This document shows positions 20,925 through 33,983 of a stretch of 64,000 nucleotides of DNA, one piece after another. The notes beneath the pieces were generated by a model. That model was not told where the DNA came from. It made no database searches and saw only the letters and a program-made list of their open reading frames with translations. A program made the position numbers and the translations under genes. The DNA is from Nitrospina sp. (lineage in GTDB: Bacteria > Nitrospinota > Nitrospinia > Nitrospinales > VA-1): positions 48,883 to 112,882 of the forward strand of contig JABIAY010000046.1 in assembly GCA_018653085.1 (NCBI GenBank). The letters are read 5' to 3'. How positions within the stretch are numbered: the stretch's first letter is position 1; each line of letters opens with the position of its first letter.

Positions 20925-21857
20925 TCAGGGTGAAAATAGAAGTTTGAGTTTGAGCCGGAGGGAATCGTCCGCACTTTGGGTGGCGGAACCTGTCAGATGA
21001 CGAAAAGCGGAGCGAACCAGTCCTGCTAAAAATGTCACCTTGTATAAGGAACGTAAAATAAAATTCCAGCCGCAGGAATAATATTTAGAGTAGAAATAAA
21101 GGTTACTTTTATAGGTTTCCACAATGACCTTTTCCCGATGCTCCGGTTGATGCGTGCTCTGACCCAGGAGGTGCTTGACCGATGTTTCGGGGAAGTAGCA
21201 TATTTTTTGTTCGGCTTTTCGGGTTCGCCTGCAAAAATCATCTTCTTCATTGTACAAAAAATGTTTTTCATCGAGGAGGCCGACAGATTCCATGATTGTT
21301 CTGCGAATGAAGAAACAGGATCCACCAACCGCTTCCACTTCGCGGGGGCCCTTTCCGACCATGCCTTTGAATTCATCGGCAGGATTGTATTTCCCAAGAA
21401 TCTTAAGCAAAGCATCTTCCGGACTGTCTTGCCATAAGCGCATGGGAAAGGGGTGATCAGACTGGTCGATGATTTGTGGGCTGAGCACGGAAAACTCTTC
21501 GTTCTCGTTAAGAAATTGAACGATTTTGAAAAAACTGTTTTCCATCAGAACCGTATCACTGTTTAGAAGAACAACAAAGCGACCACGGCTTTCCCTGAAG
21601 GCTTGGTTGGCGGCCGAAGAGAGGCCCTTGTTTTCCTGATTGCGTATTAATTGAATCTGTGGAAATTTTTTTGATACAGCGTCGGCACTCCCGTCTATAG
21701 ACGCGTTGTCTACAACAAAGATTTCGCTCTCCAGACCAATGGTGTTTGTTTGCACCGATTCCAAACAGTCGAGCAAAAGGTCGCGTGTATTGAAGCTGAC
21801 AACGACAATCGAAAGATCGAGGGTGGGTAGGTGAGAAAATGGTGATGTGTCTACCAT
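20925..21857 (-). CDS. glycosyltransferase family 2
   Basis: SIVVVSFN, VVDNASIDGS, LLNSD, DEKHFLYNEEDDFC. Confidence 0.9.
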   Translation of the reverse strand: MVDTSPFSHLPTLDLSIVVVSFNTRDLLLDCLESVQTNTIGLESEIFVVDNASIDGSADAVSKKFPQIQLIRNQENKGLSSAANQAFRESRGRFVVLLNSDTVLMENSFFKIVQFLNENEEFSVLSPQIIDQSDHPFPMRLWQDSPEDALLKILGKYNPADEFKGMVGKGPREVEAVGGSCFFIRRTIMESVGLLDEKHFLYNEEDDFCRRTRKAEQKICYFPETSVKHLLGQSTHQPEHREKVIVETYKSNLYFYSKYYSCGWNFILRSLYKVTFLAGLVRSAFRHLTGSATQSADDSLRLKLKLLFSP

Positions 21858-21871
21858 GACAACCTGATCCG

Positions 21872-22096
21872 TTAAAGCTTTTGGGAGATCACTTCCTCGA
21901 TTATAGGAAGAGTCTGCATGGACTTTACTTCATCCAAAGTCAGAGCGATTTTGAATTCCTCTTCCATGGCGGCTACCATGGTCATATGGGCGAAGGAGTC
22001 CCATTCCGGTGTGTTGTCTGGAGAAGAAACATCGGTCAACTCATCCGAGTCAACATCGATAGCGGTGGCCAAAATTTCGCGAAGTTTAGTTTTCAT
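21872..22096 (-). CDS. acyl carrier protein (FkbH-associated type)
   Basis: Acidic 74-aa protein with a WDSFAH phosphopantetheine site and EEEFKI. Confidence 0.85.
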   Translation of the reverse strand: MKTKLREILATAIDVDSDELTDVSSPDNTPEWDSFAHMTMVAAMEEEFKIALTLDEVKSMQTLPIIEEVISQKL

Positions 22097-24362
22097 GTCG
22101 TAACATTTTAATATGGCTCGGCAACGAAACAGAGTTTTTTTCAAGGTTCAAGGTAAAAACTTTTTCTTGAGGATTGTCGGCCATGGTTTCGAATCCCGCA
22201 TCGGGATAAAAGCTTTCTGCAATCTGGTTCTTTCGGGTCGGGAAATATCGCCCAACGACATTTTTAATGTGGTCTTCGCTGGCCTTCCGGAAAATATCAT
22301 AAAGAAAAGCATTCTCGATACCTCTGCCGATAACACGACAACTCATTAAAAATGTGTCGAGTTCCCATGAATCGTTTTCGACACGGACAATACAGGCTCC
22401 AACGATACCATGGTCTCCGAAACGGTCCCCGGACTTCAGGAAATACACCCGGCTTTTTTCCGACTCGGCAAACGCCCGGATATCTGCTTCGCTGTATCGT
22501 TGTGTAGTGAGATTGAATTGGTTGGTTCGTTGCGTCAGTTGGGCAACCCGGGGAATGGAAAAGGAGTCGGCAGGTTGAATCACCACCTGGGTTTTTAATG
22601 ATTCAAGATAGCTATCGAGCTCTGTTGCCTGGTCCTTGAGGTGTCTGCGCTTGTCTTCTGTCTGGTAAAGGTGGGTTCTGTTTTTATCTTCTTCCGTGAG
22701 ATGTAAGGTTTCAAAGACACCCAGGCTTAGTAGCGTGCGGGTATATTCAGAACAATCCTCCGGCACCTCAATGGTCAGAACCTCGGGCATTTGCTGGCGA
22801 ATCAGCAAGCGTTCCGCCGGGTTGTCGTCAAAGAATACGAAGCTACTCAGTCCCAGATTGAGTTCATCGGCGATTTCTCTCAGGTTTTGTGCTTTATCAT
22901 TCCAGTTGGTCCGGATGCAGGCAAAATCGGAAAGCTTCAATTGCATATCGGGGTGTTTTTCAAACGCCTCGCGAACCAGGTCGGGATCATTTTTGCTGTT
23001 GATGGCCAGGATGATTCCGCGCCGCTGCAAAGCTTTTACAGCCTTCTGAAATTCGTAGAAAGCGTTTCCAGGAGGTTCCAATCCCAACTCAATTCCCTCA
23101 AGCCCCTCTTCTCCCAGGATGCCACCCCAGAGAGTATTGTCAAGATCCAGGACGAGGCATTTTTTGGTTTTGCCCCCAACAGGCCTTACGAAACGCATCA
23201 GTTCGCGGGCCATATCTGGAAGAGCTTGATCCGGAATAATCATTTTGGCCAGGTAGCGCATTTTTTCGTTTGCGCAGGTTGTTTTACCGCAGTTGGAAAG
23301 TACTTTCTCTGTGTCCAGAATGTGAAACCGTTGCGGATTGGATCGGGTCTGGCTCAAAAGATGATCATTCATTTTACCCAGAATCTCTTTTTGCCCACTT
23401 CCCATTTTAGAGTCGTACACACCCATATAATAATCACTCGGGAGTAAAAAGTTGCTGACAACAAGGTGAGACTTGGAAAGATCGAGAAATTTGTTGCACA
23501 GAGCTTCCACGTGTTTAAGTTTGTCCTCTGCCAAGTGAAAACGTTTTTCAGGCAGGATATCAAAAAATTTGTTAAACAACTCCGGAGAAAGAGTCTGGCT
23601 ATCCAGAAATAGAAAAGTGATTGCCGGGTCAAAGTTAAATAACCCTGAGTTGGCGTCTGCCATTTCCTGAATATATTGATCGTATCCGCCAAAATAAAAT
23701 TTCGGTTGAATGGACTGCTTGAAGCACTCCGCTTCCAAAAAATCCTTAATGGGCTCAATGGTAAAGTTGCCGATAAAGGCGATGGAGAGATTTTTGAAAC
23801 TAAGCGAATTTGTCTTTAGAAGAGACTTGACTCTCTTGATGAATATGCGCGCGCCCATGATTGAAGATCGCAAGTCATAGTATTGCGAATAATAACTGAC
23901 GGCTTTATCGGGTTGCGATTTGGCGTAGAGGTCTCCCAATAAGAGATAGGGGTCCGGATAAGAGCTGTCTTTTTGAATAGCTCCTTCCAGAAAATTTTCA
24001 GCTTGTTGGGAATCGTTCAAATTCAGGCAGGAAGACCCTGCCAATGTTAGTGCAACCTGGCTTTCCCCCAGGATACTTTCGTATTGTTTGAAGAGCTCAT
24101 TTGCGGATTGATACTGCTTGTTTTTTTCATAAGCCTGGAGCAAAACAATGGCAGGCTCTACCAGGTGGTGATTTTTAATTTGCCGCCCCTTGCTGAAGAC
24201 CTCTTCAAGTTTTTCTCTGGCCATGGAAAGATAACCTCTCTCCACCAAAAAACGTATTTCCTGACAACCAGCAGTCAGTTCCATTTCCGCTCGGGTGGCC
24301 GGGTCTAAACCTTCGGGTGAGGACGGGTTCAGGGCATCTGATTTTAAGATCGGTTTGGCCAT
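22086..24362 (-). CDS. FkbH-like glyceryl-ACP synthase (HAD-IIIC) with N-terminal TPR region
   Basis: LVLDLDNTLWGG, SKND, FFDDNPAE, QRTNQFNLT, DRFGDHG, MSCRV. Confidence 0.92.
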   Translation of the reverse strand: MAKPILKSDALNPSSPEGLDPATRAEMELTAGCQEIRFLVERGYLSMAREKLEEVFSKGRQIKNHHLVEPAIVLLQAYEKNKQYQSANELFKQYESILGESQVALTLAGSSCLNLNDSQQAENFLEGAIQKDSSYPDPYLLLGDLYAKSQPDKAVSYYSQYYDLRSSIMGARIFIKRVKSLLKTNSLSFKNLSIAFIGNFTIEPIKDFLEAECFKQSIQPKFYFGGYDQYIQEMADANSGLFNFDPAITFLFLDSQTLSPELFNKFFDILPEKRFHLAEDKLKHVEALCNKFLDLSKSHLVVSNFLLPSDYYMGVYDSKMGSGQKEILGKMNDHLLSQTRSNPQRFHILDTEKVLSNCGKTTCANEKMRYLAKMIIPDQALPDMARELMRFVRPVGGKTKKCLVLDLDNTLWGGILGEEGLEGIELGLEPPGNAFYEFQKAVKALQRRGIILAINSKNDPDLVREAFEKHPDMQLKLSDFACIRTNWNDKAQNLREIADELNLGLSSFVFFDDNPAERLLIRQQMPEVLTIEVPEDCSEYTRTLLSLGVFETLHLTEEDKNRTHLYQTEDKRRHLKDQATELDSYLESLKTQVVIQPADSFSIPRVAQLTQRTNQFNLTTQRYSEADIRAFAESEKSRVYFLKSGDRFGDHGIVGACIVRVENDSWELDTFLMSCRVIGRGIENAFLYDIFRKASEDHIKNVVGRYFPTRKNQIAESFYPDAGFETMADNPQEKVFTLNLEKNSVSLPSHIKMLRHEN

Positions 24363-24363
24363 A

Positions 24364-25122
24364 TCACATTATGTTTCCGCCGCAGACGGGAAGATTTACT
24401 CCTGTTACAAAACGGGATGGATTGGAAAGCAGAAAGAGTACCGCATTTGAAATGTCGGAGCATTCCGTGTTTCGCTTTAGCGGAGTTCCCTCGGCAAAAG
24501 ACTGCTTAAACGATTCGGGCATATGACTCACCATGTCGGTTTCGGTCAATCCCGGCGAGACCATGTTGACGTTGACTCCGAAGGGAGCCAGTTCGACAGC
24601 CAGGCATTTCGAGAACCCGACCAGAGCATATTTTGCGGTGACGTAGGTGGCCATGGCAATAGGTGGCAGGCCGAATGTAAATTGAGTCGCTATATTGACA
24701 ATGCTTCCCCTGCGGTTTTTCATCATCAACGCGCCAACGCTTTTAGAACAGTTGAACGCCGATTTGACACCTGCTTCAAAACAGGACTGAAAATCATCCC
24801 AGTCCGTTTTTACGATCTTTTTGCTGACGATTCCCGGTCCGACATTATTGACCAAAATGGTTGGCGCACCGAACTGCTCCACCGTTTGGGACAGCAGGCT
24901 CTGAACATCCTCAAACTGGGTAACATCTGCCCGAACTGCCAATGCGGTTCCACCGGACTGATTAATTTTAGCAACCAGGGCATTCGCCTGTTCCTCGCTT
25001 TCTCGATAGTTGACGATCACACGGCATCCAGCCGAAGCCAGGGTCATCGCAATGTCCGCCCCGATGCCTCTGCCGGCACCAGTCACGATGGCGATTTCAT
25101 TTTCCATTTCCCTATTCATCAT
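24364..25122 (-). CDS. FabG-like short-chain dehydrogenase/ketoreductase
   Basis: TGAGRGIG, LVNN, YVTAK, VSPGLTETDM. Confidence 0.88.
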   Translation of the reverse strand: MMNREMENEIAIVTGAGRGIGADIAMTLASAGCRVIVNYRESEEQANALVAKINQSGGTALAVRADVTQFEDVQSLLSQTVEQFGAPTILVNNVGPGIVSKKIVKTDWDDFQSCFEAGVKSAFNCSKSVGALMMKNRRGSIVNIATQFTFGLPPIAMATYVTAKYALVGFSKCLAVELAPFGVNVNMVSPGLTETDMVSHMPESFKQSFAEGTPLKRNTECSDISNAVLFLLSNPSRFVTGVNLPVCGGNIM

Positions 25123-25549
25123 TAATGGTTCCTTCGTTGAGAGGAGGGCACAGGACTCTGGCGGTGCCTGTCAAAACATTTTCAGCGTTTTGATTTGTGA
25201 CGGCGATTTTAAGAACCAACATTTGGGAACTAACCACCTTTTGTATAACAATGGCCGTTATCTGGATTGTATCATCAATCGCGACCGTCTTTTTAAAGTT
25301 CAACTCCTGACTGAGGTAGAGTGCCCCCGGCCCGGGAAGTTGCATTCCAACAACCGTGGATATGAAGGAGGCCGTCAACATTCCATGGACCACCCTTTTC
25401 TTGAACCCGGCTTTAGAGGCAAAGCCAGCATCCATATGTAGCGGGTTGGTGTCGCCTGTGAGTTCGGCAAATGTTTGTACGTCTTTTTCTGTGACGGTGT
25501 GGCGAAGCGAAGCTTCACGACCAATTTGTATCGCATCGAAATCGAGCAT
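25112..25549 (-). CDS. MaoC-family (R)-specific dehydratase
   Basis: FAELTGDTNPLH, VHGML, LPGPG, YLSQELNF. Confidence 0.9.
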   Translation of the reverse strand: MLDFDAIQIGREASLRHTVTEKDVQTFAELTGDTNPLHMDAGFASKAGFKKRVVHGMLTASFISTVVGMQLPGPGALYLSQELNFKKTVAIDDTIQITAIVIQKVVSSQMLVLKIAVTNQNAENVLTGTARVLCPPLNEGTINDE

Positions 25550-25557
25550 GAAACGAA

Positions 25558-26079
25558 CTATCTCCTTTTAGTCATAGATAGTTTTCGACTTCCAGAGACA
25601 ACAATCGAATCTTCCGGCACCCGGCCGGTAACGACCACACCGGAACCGATGATTACATTGTCTCCAATATGGGCTCCAGCCAGAATGGACGAGTTGGCTC
25701 CGATCCAAACGTTCTTCCCGATCACAATGTCCTTCTCATTGATAGGTTGTTCGGTGTACGACTCTTTAGAGAAAAAGGAATGATTGGATGAAATAATGAT
25801 GGTTCCCGGTCCCACTCCCGTATTGTCTCCAACAGTTATTTTAGAGTTTGGCGATGCCCAGATACAGCAGTTCATATCTAGGACGATCTTATTCCCCAGA
25901 TGAATATTTTTTTCAAAACGCAGGGACACGGTAGGATGGATTTCCGGATCAGTGCCGACCTGAAGGTTTTTCAGGGGCAACACATGCTCGTACAAATAAT
26001 ACACGAGCCAACGGAACAGCTCCCTGTAGAGATGGGGGCTGGTGATAATCTGAAGTAGTCTAATGGATTTTCCCGCCAT
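25558..26079 (-). CDS. hexapeptide-repeat (left-handed beta-helix) acyltransferase
   Basis: ITVGDNTGVGPG, SSNH, IVIGKNVWIGANSSILAGAHIGDNVIIG. Confidence 0.88.
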   Translation of the reverse strand: MAGKSIRLLQIITSPHLYRELFRWLVYYLYEHVLPLKNLQVGTDPEIHPTVSLRFEKNIHLGNKIVLDMNCCIWASPNSKITVGDNTGVGPGTIIISSNHSFFSKESYTEQPINEKDIVIGKNVWIGANSSILAGAHIGDNVIIGSGVVVTGRVPEDSIVVSGSRKLSMTKRR

Positions 26080-26851
26080 GGAATTGAGTTAGGATATTTT
26101 CTTGTTCTTTGGAATCGGCTTGAAACAAAGCTTCCGCATGTCGGAACTGGTTATTCGAACCGAGGGCGCGGAACCGGTTCAGTGATTGGGTCATTTCAGC
26201 AAAGTTGTCGATGTCTTTTTGCGAACGATACACTCGGATCGCTTCCAGCTTTTTGTCAATGACATCGGATATGTCTACTAGCTGGTTGTGGATCATAGCG
26301 GTCCAGATTTCATAGAAGAATACATGTTCCACCGGTTTTTGTCTGACCGCGTTGACAACGATGGCCGCTGTTGCCATGTGGTCGGGATGGTTATCCAGAA
26401 AAAAGGGCAGATAAACCGTGTCGGGTTTGACTTCATCAAGAATTCCCTCTACTTGTCGGACAGCTTCCTGGGTGGTTCGGAGTTGACGATCAGGATGGCC
26501 TAGAAAAATCAACCGATCAATTCCGAGAATTTGGGCCGCGGCCTCGGCTTCCTGTTTGCGAATCTGGACGATATCATTCGCATCATTGCCATTGCTGTCG
26601 CATTTCGACCCATCCGTCATAAAAACTGCGGTTAAATGATGTCCCTTCTGGTGATGTTTATAAAGTGTTCCGCCGCAACCGATGGATTCATCATCGCAAT
26701 GCGGCGAAAAAACCAAAATATTTTCACCTGGAGGAAGATCCGTTATCAAACCAGGAGACAACGAGGAAAGCGCATGGGTGAATTCATAATATTTGGAAAC
26801 GATACTGTTCCTGCGCGTGGCAAGTAGTCCTTTAAGGAAATTTTTGATCAC
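26060..26851 (-). CDS. PIG-L/LmbE family N-acetylglucosaminyl deacetylase
   Basis: SPHCDDESIGCGG, HPDH, YRSQ, AEA. Confidence 0.9.
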   Translation of the reverse strand: MIKNFLKGLLATRRNSIVSKYYEFTHALSSLSPGLITDLPPGENILVFSPHCDDESIGCGGTLYKHHQKGHHLTAVFMTDGSKCDSNGNDANDIVQIRKQEAEAAAQILGIDRLIFLGHPDRQLRTTQEAVRQVEGILDEVKPDTVYLPFFLDNHPDHMATAAIVVNAVRQKPVEHVFFYEIWTAMIHNQLVDISDVIDKKLEAIRVYRSQKDIDNFAEMTQSLNRFRALGSNNQFRHAEALFQADSKEQENILTQFHGGKIH

Positions 26852-26854
26852 TGT

Positions 26855-28030
26855 TCAGCTGATGAAATTTCGGGTGGATACAAGTTCGCCATCTTCATTA
26901 TAGTACACCTTCAGGTTCTGCCAACCTAGATGGAGATCGCAGTCTTGGCAAGTTGGGATCTCGAACCTTTTTCGTTGGACCATTTTTTCGCGCAATTCGG
27001 TTAACACCGGTCCATTCCAGATTTCCTCAATGGTTTTTTCTTGAAGATCTCCCAACACTTCGGTGGCAAACATGTCGACGCAACAAAGAACCACACGACC
27101 GTCCCAGTTAACGACCAGCCATTTCCAAAGTTGATTGCATGGAGCCGAGTTGGTTAAATTGAACTGTTTGTGGTTAAAAGTTTTTGTTATATCGGATCGA
27201 TCCATATGTTCTTCATAGAATGAATCCTTATTGAATTCTCCCGCCCAGTTGGAAATACTATCTTCCTCGATGGGAGTAACTTCAACAGTACATCGGTGAG
27301 AAGTTATTTTTGAAAACAGTTCGTGCTCCATGGTTTTCTTTCGGGAAAGCGAGGATTTGACACGAAAGTTTACCCGGACCGGACTTTGAGCCGCATCGTT
27401 CAATTCCAGAAATTTTAAAATGTTGGTACGCACAACGTCGTAGCTCATTTTTTTAATTTCTTCAAAAGTGGTTTTTTCCAGTTCATCCAGACTGATTTCA
27501 ACATCCACTCCATTTTCAATCAACATGGATGATATTTTTTCGTTCAGGAAAAAGGCGTTGGTGAGCAGTTCGGTTTTGTGGATTGAGGGGAATTGCTTTA
27601 AATATTCGATTTTCTCGACAAACGTTTTGTCCATCAATGGCTCACCGAAGGTACCAAATCGGATGACCCCGCCACGAGTTGCATAATTATCTATAATCTT
27701 TTTAAAAAGCGACATCTTCATTGCCCCAAGGTTCTCAAGTTTAGGTTGGGGGCACCATGTGCATTTGGCATTGCATCGATTTGTGATATCGAGGACCAGA
27801 GCCTTCGGCCACTCTGCCAGGGTGTCGGCAAGAGGCTTTACCGTAATATCGAACAGGGGCGACTCATACGCTCGCCGACGGAAATAATCCATTTCCTGGA
27901 AAAACGGCAGTTTTTTGATCCATGATTTTACAATCTCTTTAATGATGAAGCCTCTGGTGAGTTGTTTTGCCGGCTCATGTATTTGGACTCTTGCGAAAGG
28001 ACGAGGGTTGGTCTGGGTGAGACGGTTCAC
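26855..28030 (-). CDS. radical SAM protein with SPASM/twitch domain
   Basis: CNAKCTWC, FGEPL, C-terminal PC...VNWDGRVVLCC...IWNG...CQDC. Confidence 0.9.
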   Translation of the reverse strand: MNRLTQTNPRPFARVQIHEPAKQLTRGFIIKEIVKSWIKKLPFFQEMDYFRRRAYESPLFDITVKPLADTLAEWPKALVLDITNRCNAKCTWCPQPKLENLGAMKMSLFKKIIDNYATRGGVIRFGTFGEPLMDKTFVEKIEYLKQFPSIHKTELLTNAFFLNEKISSMLIENGVDVEISLDELEKTTFEEIKKMSYDVVRTNILKFLELNDAAQSPVRVNFRVKSSLSRKKTMEHELFSKITSHRCTVEVTPIEEDSISNWAGEFNKDSFYEEHMDRSDITKTFNHKQFNLTNSAPCNQLWKWLVVNWDGRVVLCCVDMFATEVLGDLQEKTIEEIWNGPVLTELREKMVQRKRFEIPTCQDCDLHLGWQNLKVYYNEDGELVSTRNFIS

Positions 28031-28124
28031 GATATTGAGGACCTTGAGGGGGTAATTTGATTACCTTATCGGGTATTTTATACCATTTGTTGAGATTTTT
28101 GTGAGATTAGGGGGGAAACTTTCC

Positions 28125-29267
28125 CTATATTTCATCCAGAACGGATTGGTAGATTTCTGTCATTTCCCGGGCGGATTGATCCCAGGAAAAACGTTGGCGC
28201 ACCAATTCTTGTCCGGCGTCTGCAAGGGTCTGAGCCCGACCCGGATTTTCCAGTTTTTCGAGGATAGCACGGTAAAGCGCCGGGATATTTCCGGGCGATA
28301 CCAGAGTTCCTGTCACCCCATCGTTAATGAATTCCGGAAGTGCTCCCACCCGGGTTGCAATGATAGGTAGCCCCGCCCCCATCGCTTCTGCCATGGACAA
28401 GCCGAAACTCTCGATGCGGGAGGGGAAAACCCCAACTGCGCATTTGCTGGTGAATTGTTGAAGGGCACTGGCATCCATCCAGCCGTGGAAAGTGACCCGA
28501 TCCGACACCCCCAGTTCCTCCGCCTGTTTGCGGTAGGATTCGGTCATGTTGCCTTCTCCGATCAAGTGGAGTCGGACCTCCGGAACCCGCCCCGCAACCT
28601 CTTTCAACGTGCGGAGAAGTTCGGGAATCCCTTTTTCGTCTTCCATCCGCCCCCACAACACCAGATCCTTTGAACCCTCAGCCTGCCTTGTTGCCTCGAG
28701 CCAGGTGGAATCTATTCCGGGAGAAACCACCGTCACTTTTTTTCCTTTTTTATTTCTTAACCCTTTTAGAACCAGTTTTTTTGAAAACTCGCTGAAGGTG
28801 ATGACCCTGGATGCGTTGAAAGCCGAGGAACGTAATAAATAATTGTTGAGCGTTTTTAAAAAAGATAGAGGGCGCAACATTCCGCGAATCATCCCAGTTT
28901 CCGGGATCGCACAAGAGTGGTTGGTAAACAGGTAACCGGCCTTGAATTTCCTGGCAATCTCGCTGGCAAAAAATGCCTCTTCGGCATTGCCATGCACAAT
29001 ATCGAACCGCTCCCATTTCATCAGGCGCTTCAAGGCGCGGTAATAGGAAAAAATGTCCAGGTTCAGCGTGGCGCAATGAAAATGGGAGGTCCAGTGCACG
29101 GTATAAGGGGGTTTTGCTGAAATCTTTTCGCCGGGACTTTTAGAATAAAGCACATGAACATCATGCCCCATTCTCTGTAAAGCGCAGGCAAGATGATGCA
29201 CGGCAATCTGACCACCCCCCTTGAATTTAGACCAGGGAGAAGAATAAATGGTAAGGCAAATTTTCAT
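28125..29267 (-). CDS. glycosyltransferase family 4
   Basis: GGGQ, GRMEDEKG, PSRIESFGLSMAEAMGAG, FSWD. Confidence 0.9.
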   Translation of the reverse strand: MKICLTIYSSPWSKFKGGGQIAVHHLACALQRMGHDVHVLYSKSPGEKISAKPPYTVHWTSHFHCATLNLDIFSYYRALKRLMKWERFDIVHGNAEEAFFASEIARKFKAGYLFTNHSCAIPETGMIRGMLRPLSFLKTLNNYLLRSSAFNASRVITFSEFSKKLVLKGLRNKKGKKVTVVSPGIDSTWLEATRQAEGSKDLVLWGRMEDEKGIPELLRTLKEVAGRVPEVRLHLIGEGNMTESYRKQAEELGVSDRVTFHGWMDASALQQFTSKCAVGVFPSRIESFGLSMAEAMGAGLPIIATRVGALPEFINDGVTGTLVSPGNIPALYRAILEKLENPGRAQTLADAGQELVRQRFSWDQSAREMTEIYQSVLDEI

Positions 29268-29554
29268 TCCACAACCATGGGGTCAATTAGTTTCTGGATT
29301 TGAGCTTCCAGCCTCATAGATTATAAGGGAAATACCATTTGTTTTTTATTAATTTTCTACCAACCCTTTAAAGTACCCAACCCCATAAACCGTTAAGGTT
29401 TAAGAGTCTGCTTTATATAAAACAAACTAAACGAAAACAGATTTTCTCCATTGCAAACGACAACTGGAAGCATGTGGGAAACCAGATTGCAGTGTGGTAA
29501 CATTTATCGTAGTTAAAAACCTTTGTTTCGTACTTGGTTTTTGGAGCCCTGCTA

Positions 29555-31162
29555 TTGACGACCCGCGATTTTAAAATCACCCTCATTACCTCCATCTCCG
29601 ATATTCAGCGTTCCTACATGCCCTGGAACCTGATGACCCTGGTTTCGGTTTGCCGCCAGGAAGGAATCAACGCCGATCTGATCGATGTTAAAACGGATCA
29701 AGGTCCCGATCACGCTTACAAAACAATTTTTGAAAAATTGGCGGAAGATGTTCCGGATGTGGTGGGCCTGCCGTGCTCCACCGTTGATGTTACGGATGTC
29801 AGACGAATCGCAACCGATTTAAAACGCTGCTACCCGGATATTAAAATCGTTGTGGGAGGAATACACGCGACGATGTATCCGGATGATTTTTTTGAAGAGG
29901 ACTATGGAATCGACTACGTTGTCACCGGTTACGGAGAAATCCCTTTAACACGCCTCCTTAAAGCTCTGCGGTCCGGGGATGATCCGGCCATTCCCAAAAT
30001 ACCCAATCTGACGTTTAAAGATGCATCGGGTGTAGTGACCACCGAAACCGCCAATGAGCAATATGATCTGGCGCTGCTCCCCAAAATGGATTTTGGGATG
30101 CTGGACATGAACTACTATATACGCCCGATGGAAGACCTGGTTCGAGGCGTTCCTATAACCGGCATGACCATTTATACTACGAGAGGGTGCCCGTTCAAAT
30201 GCTCCTTTTGTGTATCCGGCGGATTGTGGGAAATCGTCAAATCGGTTCAATACAAGACAGTTGATTACGTTGTCGATGAATTGGAATATTTCAAGAAGAC
30301 TTTTCATATAGACGGTTTTTATATTTACGATGATGTTTTTATTCTGAATAAGAAGTTTGCGATGGCAGTCTGCGATGAAATCATACGCCGCAAATTGAAT
30401 CTGGTTTGGGGATGTCAGAGTACGGTACATGTGGTGGACGAGGAGATTGCAGAAAAAATGGCTGAGGCGGGTTGTGTGCAGATGGACTTTGGTGTTGAGT
30501 CCGGTTCGCAGTCCCAGTTGGAACGCATGAATAAATCGTGGGCCAAGCAGGATAAGACGGTGGAGGCTTTTAAAATCTGTCGTAAAAACGGGATCAGAAC
30601 CCTGGCCAACTGGATGTTCAACGGACCACAGGAAACGGAGGCAGATGTCAACGCAACGTTTGAGTTCGCAAAACGCATCAGCGCGAATACGAATGTCTTC
30701 AGCTTCTACATTCCTTATCCCGGTGGCGGCGATGCAGAGCCTTTCTGGAAAGACAAAAAAGTAGATGTTGCGCTATTTGAAAACTTTTCTCGCGGAATGA
30801 GTTGGAAACAGCACTTGGAAACCGTTGACAATAATTTCCGGCAGAGCCAGCACAACATGAAGTTTGTGGATATGTATAAACGCATTGTCCGGGAGTTTCC
30901 CGTTCGCTCCAATTTTCATCTTAAATTTTCACTTTCCTGGTTGAAGCATTTCAACGACCTGATTTCATGGGTTTACAGCCCGTGGTTTTGGGGTGTCCTC
31001 CTCAGGAGCAAACACAAGCCGGCCTATATCAAATGGTTTGTGAAGAGGATAAAAGGTCTACTGCCGCAAATGAAAGTCAGCTTTGAAGATAAGATGGATC
31101 TCCATCTTTCGGAAACTCTGAAACCCACCAACACCCCTGGCCAAACCGTGCGGATAGAGTAA
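29555..31162 (+). CDS. cobalamin-dependent (class B) radical SAM protein
   Basis: B12-binding domain PDVVG...VVGGIHAT...GYGEIP; TRGCPFKCSFC; FGVESGSQ; TTG start at 29555 after GGAG. Confidence 0.9.
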   Translation: MTTRDFKITLITSISDIQRSYMPWNLMTLVSVCRQEGINADLIDVKTDQGPDHAYKTIFEKLAEDVPDVVGLPCSTVDVTDVRRIATDLKRCYPDIKIVVGGIHATMYPDDFFEEDYGIDYVVTGYGEIPLTRLLKALRSGDDPAIPKIPNLTFKDASGVVTTETANEQYDLALLPKMDFGMLDMNYYIRPMEDLVRGVPITGMTIYTTRGCPFKCSFCVSGGLWEIVKSVQYKTVDYVVDELEYFKKTFHIDGFYIYDDVFILNKKFAMAVCDEIIRRKLNLVWGCQSTVHVVDEEIAEKMAEAGCVQMDFGVESGSQSQLERMNKSWAKQDKTVEAFKICRKNGIRTLANWMFNGPQETEADVNATFEFAKRISANTNVFSFYIPYPGGGDAEPFWKDKKVDVALFENFSRGMSWKQHLETVDNNFRQSQHNMKFVDMYKRIVREFPVRSNFHLKFSLSWLKHFNDLISWVYSPWFWGVLLRSKHKPAYIKWFVKRIKGLLPQMKVSFEDKMDLHLSETLKPTNTPGQTVRIE

Positions 31163-31240: not shown

Positions 31241-31327
31241 TGGTGCCGAAGAGAAGACTCGAACTTCCACACCCTTTCGGGCACATGAACCTGAATCATG
31301 CGCGTCTACCAATTCCGCCACTTCGGC
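31241..31327 (-). tRNA. tRNA-Leu (anticodon CAG)
   Basis: GCCGAAGTGGCGGAATTGGTAGACGCG CATGA-TTCAGGT-TCATG, long variable arm, GTTCGAGTC, CCA end. Confidence 0.96.
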
Positions 31328-31448: not shown

Positions 31449-32510
31449 TCATTTATTTGCGGTTTCTGTGTGTTCCAATCCCGCCTCCGCTTCCTCTTCC
31501 GCTTTGATCAAAGACTGCATCGACATATGATCTCTAAAAATAAAAAATAACCCTCCGGCAATCAAAACTATAAAGCCTGCCGCCCAGGCAACCATACCAA
31601 AACTAACGGCTGTCACCTCAGCTTCTCCCATAATTTCATGCAGAGCAATCAAAACTCCCGCATTAAAAGATCCCAGAAAACCCGGGGTAGGAAGTATCGT
31701 TATAAGAACACAAACCATAACGGTTAATAATAGTATGGAATCCAAGGATTTATTTTGCAGATCAAAAGCAAAATAAAAGGGGTAGTAGGTTGCGACAAAT
31801 AATGCCCACAACGCTAAAGACCAAAAAATGATCTGAGCTAGAGCACTGGGGTCTTTGATTATTTTGCATCCCAGGGCAAATTCCCCGACCATGAATAAAA
31901 TCTTTTCCTTCCATTTATCCGGGAGAGGTTTTGCCAGCCACCCTATACAGGATTTAACTTGCTCCTCTTTGTAAGCCAAAGAAAACATAAAACATAGCAG
32001 ACCCACAACCACTATTCCGCAAAACTTGCCAAACCCTGCCAGCATGGATTGAACAGATACTCCGGAAAAGGTCAGTTGCGGGTCAAACATATCTACATTG
32101 ACCACAAAGACCCATACAAACAGGATCAGCAGACAGATTAAATCAAACAAGCGCTCCACAATTATGGTGGAAAAAGCACCCGCAAAAGTAATGTCGTGTT
32201 TTTTCCCCACCAGATAAGCACGAAGGAATTCCCCTGCACGGGCAGGAAGGATGTTTCCCATAAAACCGATCATCAGGGGCGCATAAATATCATTAACCGG
32301 GATTTGTTTAAACGGGCGAAGTAGAATTTGCCAACGATAGGCACGGACCACATAGGTCAAAATAATTATTCCCAATGCCGGAAAAATATAAACCAACTCC
32401 GCTTCTTTAAAAGAAGCGACCAGTTCATCCAATGAAATGTTGCGCAAGGTGTAATAAAGTGCTCCCGCTGCAATGGCGAGACCAATCAATAACTGGCGAG
32501 CTTTTTTCAA
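31449..32510 (-). CDS. lysylphosphatidylglycerol synthase TM-domain / flippase-like membrane protein (UPF0104)
   Basis: RAYRWQILL, GNILPARAGEFLR, STIIVERLFD, LPTPGFLG; multiple TM helices. Confidence 0.85.
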   Translation of the reverse strand: MKKARQLLIGLAIAAGALYYTLRNISLDELVASFKEAELVYIFPALGIIILTYVVRAYRWQILLRPFKQIPVNDIYAPLMIGFMGNILPARAGEFLRAYLVGKKHDITFAGAFSTIIVERLFDLICLLILFVWVFVVNVDMFDPQLTFSGVSVQSMLAGFGKFCGIVVVGLLCFMFSLAYKEEQVKSCIGWLAKPLPDKWKEKILFMVGEFALGCKIIKDPSALAQIIFWSLALWALFVATYYPFYFAFDLQNKSLDSILLLTVMVCVLITILPTPGFLGSFNAGVLIALHEIMGEAEVTAVSFGMVAWAAGFIVLIAGGLFFIFRDHMSMQSLIKAEEEAEAGLEHTETANK

Positions 32511-33568: not shown

Positions 33569-33865
33569 ATGTTTGATATCGGATTTTTTGAACTGATGAT
33601 TTTAATGGGTATCGCCGTTGTGGTGATTGGCCCACAAAACCTTCCCAAACTCGCAAAAGCCATCGGTAAAGGCTGGGGCGAGTTCCAAAATACTTTCAGC
33701 GGCCTGAAAAAAGAAGTTATGGATGAAGCGGAAGGACTCAAGCAAACCGTCAACATCGATGCGCTGGAACAAGACATCAGTGCCGCAACAAAAGTCGATG
33801 TGGATGTCAATCTTTCAGCCGCCGATCTGGATATTGCCGGCGACCTGAGAAAAAAAGACGACTAA
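33569..33865 (+). CDS. tatB: twin-arginine translocase TatB/TatA subunit
   Basis: MFDIGFFELMIL..IAVVVIGPQNLPKLAK. Confidence 0.8.
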   Translation: MFDIGFFELMILMGIAVVVIGPQNLPKLAKAIGKGWGEFQNTFSGLKKEVMDEAEGLKQTVNIDALEQDISAATKVDVDVNLSAADLDIAGDLRKKDD

Positions 33866-33868
33866 CCA

Positions 33869-33963
33869 CCACTAGGCGTGGGGCCAGTGTGCCGTCGCTT
33901 TATTTGGCGAGCAAAGAGTTGTCTCGGCGCAATCAAGCTCTTGCCCAGTTGCCTCCCCTGCTA
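33869..33963 (+). repeat. modular intergenic repeat (A-B)
   Basis: CCACTAGGCGTGGGGCCAGTGTGCCGTCGCTTTATTTGGCGAGCAAAGAGTTGTCTCGGCGCAATCAAGCTCTTGCC, 3 nt after the tatB stop. Confidence 0.9.
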
Positions 33964-33983
33964 ATTCCCTTCTGGAATATTCA

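Follow-up and report, generated by a model that had tools for sequence, protein, structure and literature searches.

A putative six-gene acyl-tailoring insert with a free-standing FkbH-like protein in a glycosyltransferase operon of Nitrospinales

A stretch of 64,000 nucleotides (the window) from Nitrospina sp. (assembly GCA_018653085.1, contig JABIAY010000046.1, positions 48,883 to 112,882 of the forward strand) was analysed, and a locus of nine closely spaced minus-strand genes was studied in it. In order of transcription they encode a GT4 glycosyltransferase, a radical S-adenosylmethionine (rSAM) enzyme, a PIG-L-family deacetylase, a hexapeptide acyltransferase (Hexapep), a MaoC-type dehydratase, a FabG-like short-chain dehydrogenase/reductase (SDR), an FkbH-like loader, an acyl carrier protein (ACP) and a GT2 glycosyltransferase. 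Comparison with related loci indicates a core operon of GT4, a BtrN-like rSAM enzyme and GT2, and an insert formed by the remaining six genes. With about even confidence, the locus is read as a conserved Nitrospinales glycoconjugate operon carrying an optional six-gene tailoring insert, by which a C3 hydroxy-acyl group would be made on the ACP and put on a de-acetylated amino sugar.

Distribution and insertion of the putative tailoring genes

Orthologues of the rSAM protein, the best-conserved member of the operon (58–71% identity in syntenic relatives), were searched by profile in 120 genomes of the phylum and accepted above 600 bits or as a split match. They were present in 38 genomes, all Nitrospinales, at 39 loci, all of which were read or located; the gene usually adjoined GT4, GT2 or both, often near the MnmG gene, and GT4 was adjacent in 21 of the 39 loci besides the window locus itself. 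The full set (rSAM with PIG-L, Hexapep, MaoC, SDR, FkbH, ACP and GT2) was found at eight loci including the window, five fully read, two partly read and one inferred from one-contig coordinates only. The order rSAM-PIG-L-Hexapep-GT2 occurred at two loci (L126 in genome G033 and L137 in genome G074), GT4-rSAM-GT2 at 14, rSAM-GT2 at five and GT4-rSAM at seven, while rSAM stood alone in the stretch fetched, often at a contig end, at three. At the loci seen, the FkbH module in this operon was always accompanied by PIG-L and Hexapep. From this nested pattern, the six genes appear to behave as an optional tailoring insert in a glycosyltransferase operon.

Six genomes from two other families of the order have full-length FkbH orthologues (48–59% identity), and none was found in the 22 other genomes of the same genus. 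A further FkbH relative, at 65% identity, is labelled Nitrospinales by its source. Around four of the orthologues the genes from rSAM to GT2 were syntenic, with 51–71% identity. In a metagenome scan with the Hexapep alignment, seven relatives were recovered among 166 pattern matches. In all five close ones (51–88% identity) the neighbours are the same up to the contig ends; in one, no ACP is seen between FkbH and GT2. The two distant ones are unrelated sugar loci. Since the same set is syntenic in four fully read relatives and in five of five close metagenome matches, the arrangement is not due to chance. The initial annotation of this DNA had named a lack of co-occurrence in other genomes as a refutation of its reading; with eight Nitrospinales genomes, this one included, carrying the set, that refutation fails. 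In most copies the Hexapep gene adjoins that of PIG-L; in five copies of family f3 (L093, L094, L107, L115 and L116) the ACP gene lies in between, having been relocated directly after the Hexapep gene.

The same chromosomal site is occupied in four genomes of the genus by GT4-GT2 or GT4-rSAM-GT2 beside MnmG, and two further genomes of the genus retain only a C-terminal remnant of GT2. Identity of these same-genus proteins to those of the window is 80–90% for GT4 and 86–95% for MnmG, and only 62–65% for GT2, which is a mosaic: residues 1–190 are 42–57% identical to the same-genus proteins and residues 251–310 are 82–93% identical. Nucleotide similarity to the same-genus genomes stops near position 21284. 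It follows from the mosaic and this break that recombination brought the six genes and the catalytic part of GT2 into an operon already present, the N-terminal catalytic part of GT2 belonging to the insert and its C-terminal part being native to the genus. A genomic-island signal in GC content was rejected, as the locus has values of 0.447–0.484 and the window ranges from 0.433 to 0.515.

The Hexapep copies of G033 and G074 nest among those of full-set loci in an unrooted tree, which fits a secondary loss of the FkbH module. These two genomes belong to different families, yet their Hexapep proteins differ at few alignment positions only, which suggests a recent transfer of the reduced operon.

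FkbH-like protein and acyl carrier protein

The FkbH protein matched TIGR01686 over the full length of the model (326.4 bits, cut-off 146.65; residues 399–725 on model positions 2–320 of 323; NCBIfam) and the HAD-IIIC family TIGR01681 with 64 bits (cut-off 35.75), which places it in the FkbH family. It was the sole protein of the operon over a curated NCBIfam cut-off; all others scored below the equivalog cut-offs, so that none of them is orthologous to a named enzyme. Its HAD motif reads LDLDNT. Under the pattern DxDxT, S/T, K and DD, which we take to mark the phosphatase residues, D406, D408, S456, K490, D512 and D513 are each kept in at least 97% of 118 relatives. A cysteine, Cys675, is kept in 118 of 118 relatives within the motif S-C-R-x-x-G-R, and immediately precedes an R-x-x-G-x-G loop, presumably the pantetheine-binding loop of GNAT proteins. 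The model of residues 555–758 reached a pLDDT (predicted local distance difference test) of 91.6, and all its top structural matches were GNAT acetyltransferases. For OzmB, formation of a phosphoglyceryl-S-enzyme, removal of the phosphate and transfer of the glyceryl group to an ACP are described (PMC9057759), and the predicted position of Cys675 in a GNAT fold fits that scheme. The FkbH identity given in the initial annotation was borne out by the TIGR01686 match and the HAD motifs, and the invariant Cys675 in the GNAT-fold domain is a candidate for the residue that carries the glyceryl group.

No Ser or His is conserved in the FkbH_N region among the 118 relatives. For residues 175–559 the sole match of solved structure was 3SLR, the unstudied Bacteroides protein BF1531. 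Long FkbH-like proteins (about 600 aa) are very common, forming at least 8000 clusters at E <= 1e-10. In the adjacent ACP the W-D-S34 motif is invariant in six of six orthologues.

Among 80 distant FkbH loci (32–45% identity), ACP was found in 15, MaoC in nine, FabG in seven and PIG-L and rSAM in one each, by an insensitive tblastn scan with single window proteins as queries. Eight module loci from several phyla were scanned with Pfam (seven of the distant FkbH loci, and L096 of the same order). MaoC accompanied FkbH in them, usually with SDR and ACP, and the further partners were MBOAT in four, GNAT in two, a type I polyketide synthase (PKS) with thioesterase in one and none recognised in one. 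These partners, and a second FkbH beside an MBOAT gene in the same genome, suggest that the donor module is portable and paired with different transferases.

In locus L025 (20-11199; contig of an Acetivibrio metagenome-assembled genome) FkbH, ACP, MaoC and SDR directly follow two type I PKS genes, an ACP and a thioesterase, and the four-gene set may feed the polyketide synthase. The second FkbH-like gene of the genome under study (G000, contig C13, locus L095, 9731-14614; 27% identity) has as neighbours an ACP, an MBOAT, two B12 radical-SAM genes and genes of GDSL-like and SASA esterase-like type, and its locus is a different, probably O-acylating version of the module.

Proposed pathway and alternatives

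The substrates and products in the pathway proposed here are all inferred; the observations themselves comprise the gene content with its motifs and folds, the nested synteny and the mosaic junction. FkbH would take 1,3-bisphosphoglycerate, its HAD domain removing the 3-phosphate, and the GNAT-fold domain would hold the glyceryl group on Cys675 and pass it to Ser34 of the ACP. MaoC may then dehydrate glyceryl-ACP to enol-pyruvoyl/pyruvoyl-ACP, and the SDR may reduce pyruvoyl-ACP to lactyl-ACP; in FR901464 biosynthesis a dehydratase (DH) and a ketoreductase (KR) present as discrete domains convert glyceryl- to lactyl-ACP. PIG-L would strip the N-acetyl group from a residue of the N-acetylglucosamine (GlcNAc) type placed by GT4, and the exposed amine or, with lower likelihood, a hydroxyl would receive the C3 hydroxy-acyl group that Hexapep would take from the ACP. 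GT2, whose catalytic part the insert would have brought, is expected to add the next sugar, and the rSAM enzyme would oxidise or epimerise a sugar carbon whether or not the insert is present.

In support of the initial annotation, the MaoC motif GDxNPxH, with catalytic Asp33 and His38, is kept in 15 of 15 aligned copies, and YxxxK is conserved in the SDR. The SDR has a proline-rich loop in common with its counterparts in distant modules, and it scores under every NCBIfam FabG cut-off. Neither enzyme is of the PKS type (MaoC belongs to PF01575 and the SDR to adh_short_C2), and no ketoacyl-synthase domain was found in the 64 open reading frames (ORFs) of the window that were scanned. The set is thus not a member of the PKS lactate-starter modules, although it may work like one. 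The initial annotation was also right that no ketosynthase, nonribosomal peptide synthetase or MBOAT gene accompanies the run, no such domain being found in the 64 ORFs scanned.

The families of MaoC and SDR normally act on 3-hydroxy- and 3-oxo-acyl thioesters, and 3-hydroxybutanoyl amides are common on bacterial amino sugars. MaoC and SDR could accordingly handle a C4 unit (3-hydroxybutyryl, from acetoacetyl- or crotonyl-CoA or -ACP), giving an N-3-hydroxybutanoyl decoration and leaving FkbH a different role. This is considered very unlikely: neither operon nor window has a ketosynthase or thiolase to build a C4 unit on the dedicated ACP, and MaoC and SDR travel with FkbH and ACP in the eight loci of several phyla described above. 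Moreover, glyceryl-ACP is itself a 3-hydroxyacyl thioester, for which the regiochemistry of MaoC dehydration would be the usual one.

PIG-L scored 116.7 bits against a Pfam cut-off of 28.2 and contains HCDD (residues 51–54) and HPDH (residues 155–158), which we take to be the metal-binding His/Asp motifs of the family. Its best NCBIfam match, BshB1 (110.6 bits, cut-off 182.5), does not make it a BshB1 equivalog. The best solved relatives are diacetylchitobiose deacetylase and BshB, and the protein resembles GlcNAc-glycoside deacetylases. Hexapep is the sole transferase candidate within the insert by Pfam, and its His100 is invariant in 13 of 13 copies.

The lactyl or glyceryl glycan-tailoring pathway of the initial annotation stands in part: co-occurrence, motifs and the behaviour as an optional insert speak for it, and the following observations weigh against it. 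The ACP is recognised weakly, all its matches being sub-threshold (at most 25.6 bits; NCBIfam), and the catalytic Ser position of the SDR is Thr in six of seven Nitrospinales copies. MaoC and SDR are ordinary 3-hydroxyacyl/3-oxoacyl-type enzymes and not homologues of the PKS dehydratase and ketoreductase that make lactyl-ACP. By family and structure, Hexapep is closest, over residues 43–164, to CoA-dependent sugar O-acetyltransferases. The N-acyltransferases QdtC and LpxD align to its last repeats only, and it is not of the LpxA/LpxD type (LpxD TIGR01853: 32.4 bits, cut-off 242.5, one repeat only). The operons of G033 and G074 hold PIG-L and Hexapep without the FkbH module, and no match to TIGR01686 was found anywhere in the assembly of G074 (90% complete), so that the pair can apparently work with another donor. 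Finally, no gene for an acceptor, an exporter or a polyprenyl-phosphate transferase was found in the operon.

Two of these points favour an arrangement in which Hexapep is an ordinary acetyl-CoA O-acetyltransferase that, with PIG-L, leaves a free amine and an O-acetyl group, the FkbH-ACP product being delivered by an unlinked transferase or by FkbH itself. Its best NCBIfam matches are maltose (70 bits) and galactoside (57 bits) O-acetyltransferases, both under cut-off, with polysialic-acid O-acetyltransferase also among the best matches, and the reduced operons of G033 and G074 could be explained in the same way. However, the insert offers no second acyltransferase, FkbH_N contains neither a Ser nor a His that is invariant among the 118 relatives, the ACP gene directly follows Hexapep in the five family-f3 copies, and every FkbH module seen in this operon is accompanied by Hexapep. 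The arrangement was accordingly judged rather unlikely, and the best reading is still an N-acyl swap for which a lactyl- or glyceryl-ACP would be the donor.

Radical-SAM enzyme, glycosyltransferases and nature of the product

The rSAM protein (391 aa, about 140 residues longer than BtrN) contains the cluster motif Cys86-x3-Cys90-x2-Cys93. In a profile search its best solved match was BtrN (E 1.7e-16, 63 bits) over two stretches, 79–176 and 297–365, in which an ungapped alignment pairs C298, C317, C361 and C364 with BtrN cysteines. The auxiliary cluster of BtrN is held by four cysteines (PMC10337720). With CX3CX2C and four auxiliary-cluster cysteines in register, the protein has a BtrN-like twitch domain. 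The structure model, built from eight sequences (mean pLDDT 54.4), was too poor for a structure search, and an ESM Atlas look-up returned generic radical-SAM/SPASM clusters only. In one full-set genome (G032, contig C41, 16432-17612) the rSAM orthologue lies in two overlapping pieces, one containing TAA, and may be broken or mis-assembled.

A Pfam SPASM match of 60.8 bits, weak matches to peptide maturases and a faint SunS match for GT2 would be compatible with maturation of a ribosomally synthesised and post-translationally modified peptide (RiPP) by a radical-SAM/SPASM maturase and a GT2 peptide glycosyltransferase. The protein lacks the seven-Cys motif of RiPP SPASM maturases, having five conserved cysteines after residue 296, four of them in register with the auxiliary ligands of BtrN. 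No PqqD or RiPP recognition element match was found in the window ORFs (Pfam), no small ORF, and hence no precursor, was common to the 450 nt upstream of rSAM in six loci, and the usual neighbours of rSAM are two glycosyltransferases. A RiPP pathway is thus regarded as extremely improbable.

The best solved relatives of GT4 include MshA, BshA and PimA, and unlinked GT4 orthologues (49–52% identity) were present in four of five genomes checked from other families. In five loci (L129, L134, L140, L142 and L147) GT4-rSAM is adjoined by an LPG_synthase_TM flippase-like membrane protein, and several loci share the order RibF, LPG_synthase_TM, GT4, rSAM, (GT2), MnmG. The gene is also found in same-genus genomes without GT4 and GT2; the protein is a possible partner of the core operon.

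In butirosin biosynthesis, a GT4 glycosyltransferase, a PIG-L deacetylase, a twitch radical-SAM enzyme, and an ACP-borne alpha-hydroxy-acyl group with its transferase are represented by BtrM, BtrD, BtrN, BtrI and BtrH. This parallel, the BtrN match of rSAM, the MshA and BshA relatives of GT4, the BshB1 match of PIG-L and the absence of a membrane protein, exporter or polymerase from the operon would suit a soluble small glycoside, in the manner of aminoglycosides, mycothiol or bacillithiol, as the product. On the other hand, no cyclitol synthase or aminotransferase is present, neither G000 nor G004 gave a match to inositol-1-phosphate synthase, all family scores are under the equivalog cut-offs, and the core occupies a fixed chromosomal site across genera, at five loci beside the flippase-like protein. 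A soluble product is therefore considered unlikely.

Two candidate targets were rejected. Inositol-1-phosphate synthase, absent from the findings for G000 (95% complete) and G004, was found in G006, which is without the operon, so that an inositol acceptor has no link to it. For nonulosonic acids, NeuB-family genes are unlinked in five of five cassette genomes and also occur in nine of 14 controls, and are uninformative.

Comparison with known systems

In the FkbH/OzmB scheme 1,3-bisphosphoglycerate is converted through a glyceryl-S-enzyme to glyceryl-ACP (PMC9057759, PMC3679948). As in these pathways, which lead to methoxymalonyl-ACP and tetronates, the protein of the window has a HAD-IIIC domain and a C-terminal transferase domain passing TIGR01686, with a small ACP adjacent, and the same chemistry is presumed. 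It differs from OzmB (366 aa) in its length of 758 aa, in the addition of a TPR region and in an FkbH_N domain that resembles BF1531, and unlike in those pathways it is not followed by FkbI/J/K/G-type oxidases or methyltransferase, a ketosynthase or a PKS.

Bryostatin and FR901464 are examples of trans-AT PKS with lactate-starter loading modules of the composition FkbH-DH-KR-ACP. FkbH loading modules yielding D-lactate-ACP have been tabulated (PMC7901079). The proposed route from glyceryl-ACP by dehydration and alpha-keto reduction to lactyl-ACP is the same, whereas the dehydratase of the window is a free-standing MaoC single hot-dog, its reductase is a classical SDR and no ketosynthase uses the product.

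With butirosin, for which the function of BtrN is described (PMC10337720), the locus shares GT4, a PIG-L-family deacetylase, a twitch radical-SAM enzyme and, as proposed here, an alpha-hydroxy-acyl group built on an ACP and moved to a sugar-like amine. It differs in that the window has no 2-deoxy-scyllo-inosose synthase or aminotransferase, the acyl chain would come from FkbH and not from glutamate, and the transferase is a hexapeptide protein and not BtrH.

Deacetylation followed by reacylation is known from NodC/NodB/NodA with the ACP NodF, from LpxC/LpxD and from teicoplanin Orf2*/Orf11*; in Nod factor and lipid A synthesis the new acyl group comes from an ACP, and LpxD is a hexapeptide protein. 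The proposed order follows this logic: once GlcNAc has been added by a glycosyltransferase, its amine is exposed by a deacetylase and acylated anew by an acyltransferase. The donor here would be a C3 hydroxy-acid and not a fatty acid, and the PIG-L family differs from NodB and LpxC.

An FkbH-domain gene, cj1302, lies in the flagellar glycosylation locus of Campylobacter jejuni (PMC7099621), and the flagellin glycan of that strain bears di-O-methylglyceric acid on pseudaminic acid (PMC3068675). The feature in common is an FkbH-domain gene in a glycan locus, in C. jejuni in a strain with a glycerate-derived acyl group on its glycan. The sugar in C. jejuni is a nonulosonic acid, however, and in the available portions of these two papers no MaoC/SDR, PIG-L or radical-SAM partners are reported and cj1302 is not tied to the decoration.

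At the level of titles and abstracts, the open-access literature on FkbH concerns almost exclusively polyketides, nonribosomal peptides or their producers, the mention of cj1302 being the sole exception. No description of MaoC-SDR-FkbH-ACP modules was found in open-access literature, and subscription papers may hold one. The logic of the insert (Nod factor, lipid A, teicoplanin, butirosin) and its chemistry (PKS starter units) are already known; new is the combination of free-standing FkbH, ACP, MaoC and SDR with a PIG-L/Hexapep pair within an operon of GT4, a BtrN-like rSAM enzyme and GT2, for which the same literature gave no description.

Gene organisation, expression and neighbouring features

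The coordinates of the genes are given in Table 1. All seven ORFs that the initial annotation had placed at 20925..26851 were recovered there on the minus strand, each with its named domain (Pfam, NCBIfam), but these borders were too narrow, as rSAM and GT4 belong to the unit and had been missed. From rSAM to GT2 adjacent genes overlap by 11–20 nt or stand 1–14 nt apart: the rSAM gene ends 3 nt upstream of PIG-L and the ACP gene overlaps the FkbH stop by 11 nt. The seven genes are translationally coupled. The MnmG gene lies 43 nt downstream of GT2.

Table 1. Coordinates in the window, strand and family assignment of the genes of the locus and of the neighbouring flippase-like gene.
Product	Position	Strand	Evidence
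LPG_synthase_TM flippase-like membrane protein	31449-32510	-	Pfam 1.6e-41
GT4 glycosyltransferase	28125-29267	-	Pfam Glycos_transf_1 1.2e-34 and Glyco_transf_4
Radical-SAM enzyme with BtrN-like twitch (short SPASM) domain	26855-28030	-	Pfam Radical_SAM and SPASM
PIG-L/LmbE-family N-deacetylase	26060-26851	-	Pfam PIG-L 1.3e-33
Hexapeptide left-handed beta-helix acyltransferase (Hexapep)	25558-26079	-	Pfam Hexapep 3e-13
MaoC-type (R)-hydratase/dehydratase	25112-25549	-	Pfam MaoC_dehydratas 2.9e-24 (PF01575)
FabG-like SDR	24364-25122	-	Pfam adh_short_C2 4e-53
FkbH-like loader (TPR, FkbH_N, HAD-IIIC and GNAT-fold), 758 aa	22086-24362	-	Pfam FkbH_N, weak TPR; TIGR01686
Dedicated ACP, 74 aa, ATG start	21872-22096	-	Sub-threshold ACP matches
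GT2 glycosyltransferase	20925-21857	-	Pfam Glycos_transf_2 3.1e-24

All genes of the locus are matched, at full identity, by metatranscriptome contigs of four runs from different studies. Junctions crossed by these contigs are GT2/ACP/FkbH, FkbH/SDR, MaoC/Hexapep and Hexapep/PIG-L/rSAM; one contig of 1350 nt spans Hexapep, PIG-L and rSAM, and single runs leave parts of the locus uncovered. As DNA carry-over is not excluded and the contigs are strandless, this gives a hint that the locus is expressed.

Scans for promoters and terminators were at chance level (17 matches against 14.8 expected and 18 against 16.5 expected). Within that scan, a near-consensus sigma-70-type match (TTGGCA, 16 nt, TATAAT; 11/12) was located at 26924-26897 (-), inside the 3' end of rSAM and upstream of PIG-L, and could drive the insert separately. 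A hairpin with an 8-bp stem is present at 28108-28127, within the 95 nt that separate the GT4 stop from the rSAM start.

A tRNA-Leu(CAG) gene (31241-31327, minus strand) separates the flippase-like gene from a B12-binding radical-SAM gene (29534-31162, plus strand), the latter having no same-genus match among the matches listed. In relatives the stretch from tRNA/flippase to GT4 is filled with unrelated genes (Sel1 proteins, a restriction-modification methylase, AbiJ) and is thus a variable hot spot. A repeat of about 100 nt at 33864-33964, with many matches in this genome and in relatives at 88–97% identity, appears REP-like.

Significance

Nitrospina-type bacteria are abundant marine nitrite oxidisers. 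In the locus a BtrN-type radical-SAM enzyme is associated, outside any antibiotic pathway, with ordinary glycosyltransferases, and the natural series of core only, core with PIG-L and Hexapep, and core with the full donor module could show what the module contributes to the glycoconjugate. Lactyl and glyceroyl amides on sugars are known chemically, and if the proposed pathway is true, the insert would provide candidate genes for them. More tentatively, and as a possibility regarded as somewhat doubtful, Nitrospinales may make a new envelope glycolipid or pseudo-oligosaccharide by means of GT4, a BtrN-type radical-SAM oxidase or epimerase and GT2, in which some lineages swap N-acetyl for lactate by a PKS-free FkbH route. 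If true, this would be the first meeting of polyketide-starter, aminoglycoside-style radical-SAM and Nod-factor-style acyl-swap chemistry in one small operon for a primary cell component.

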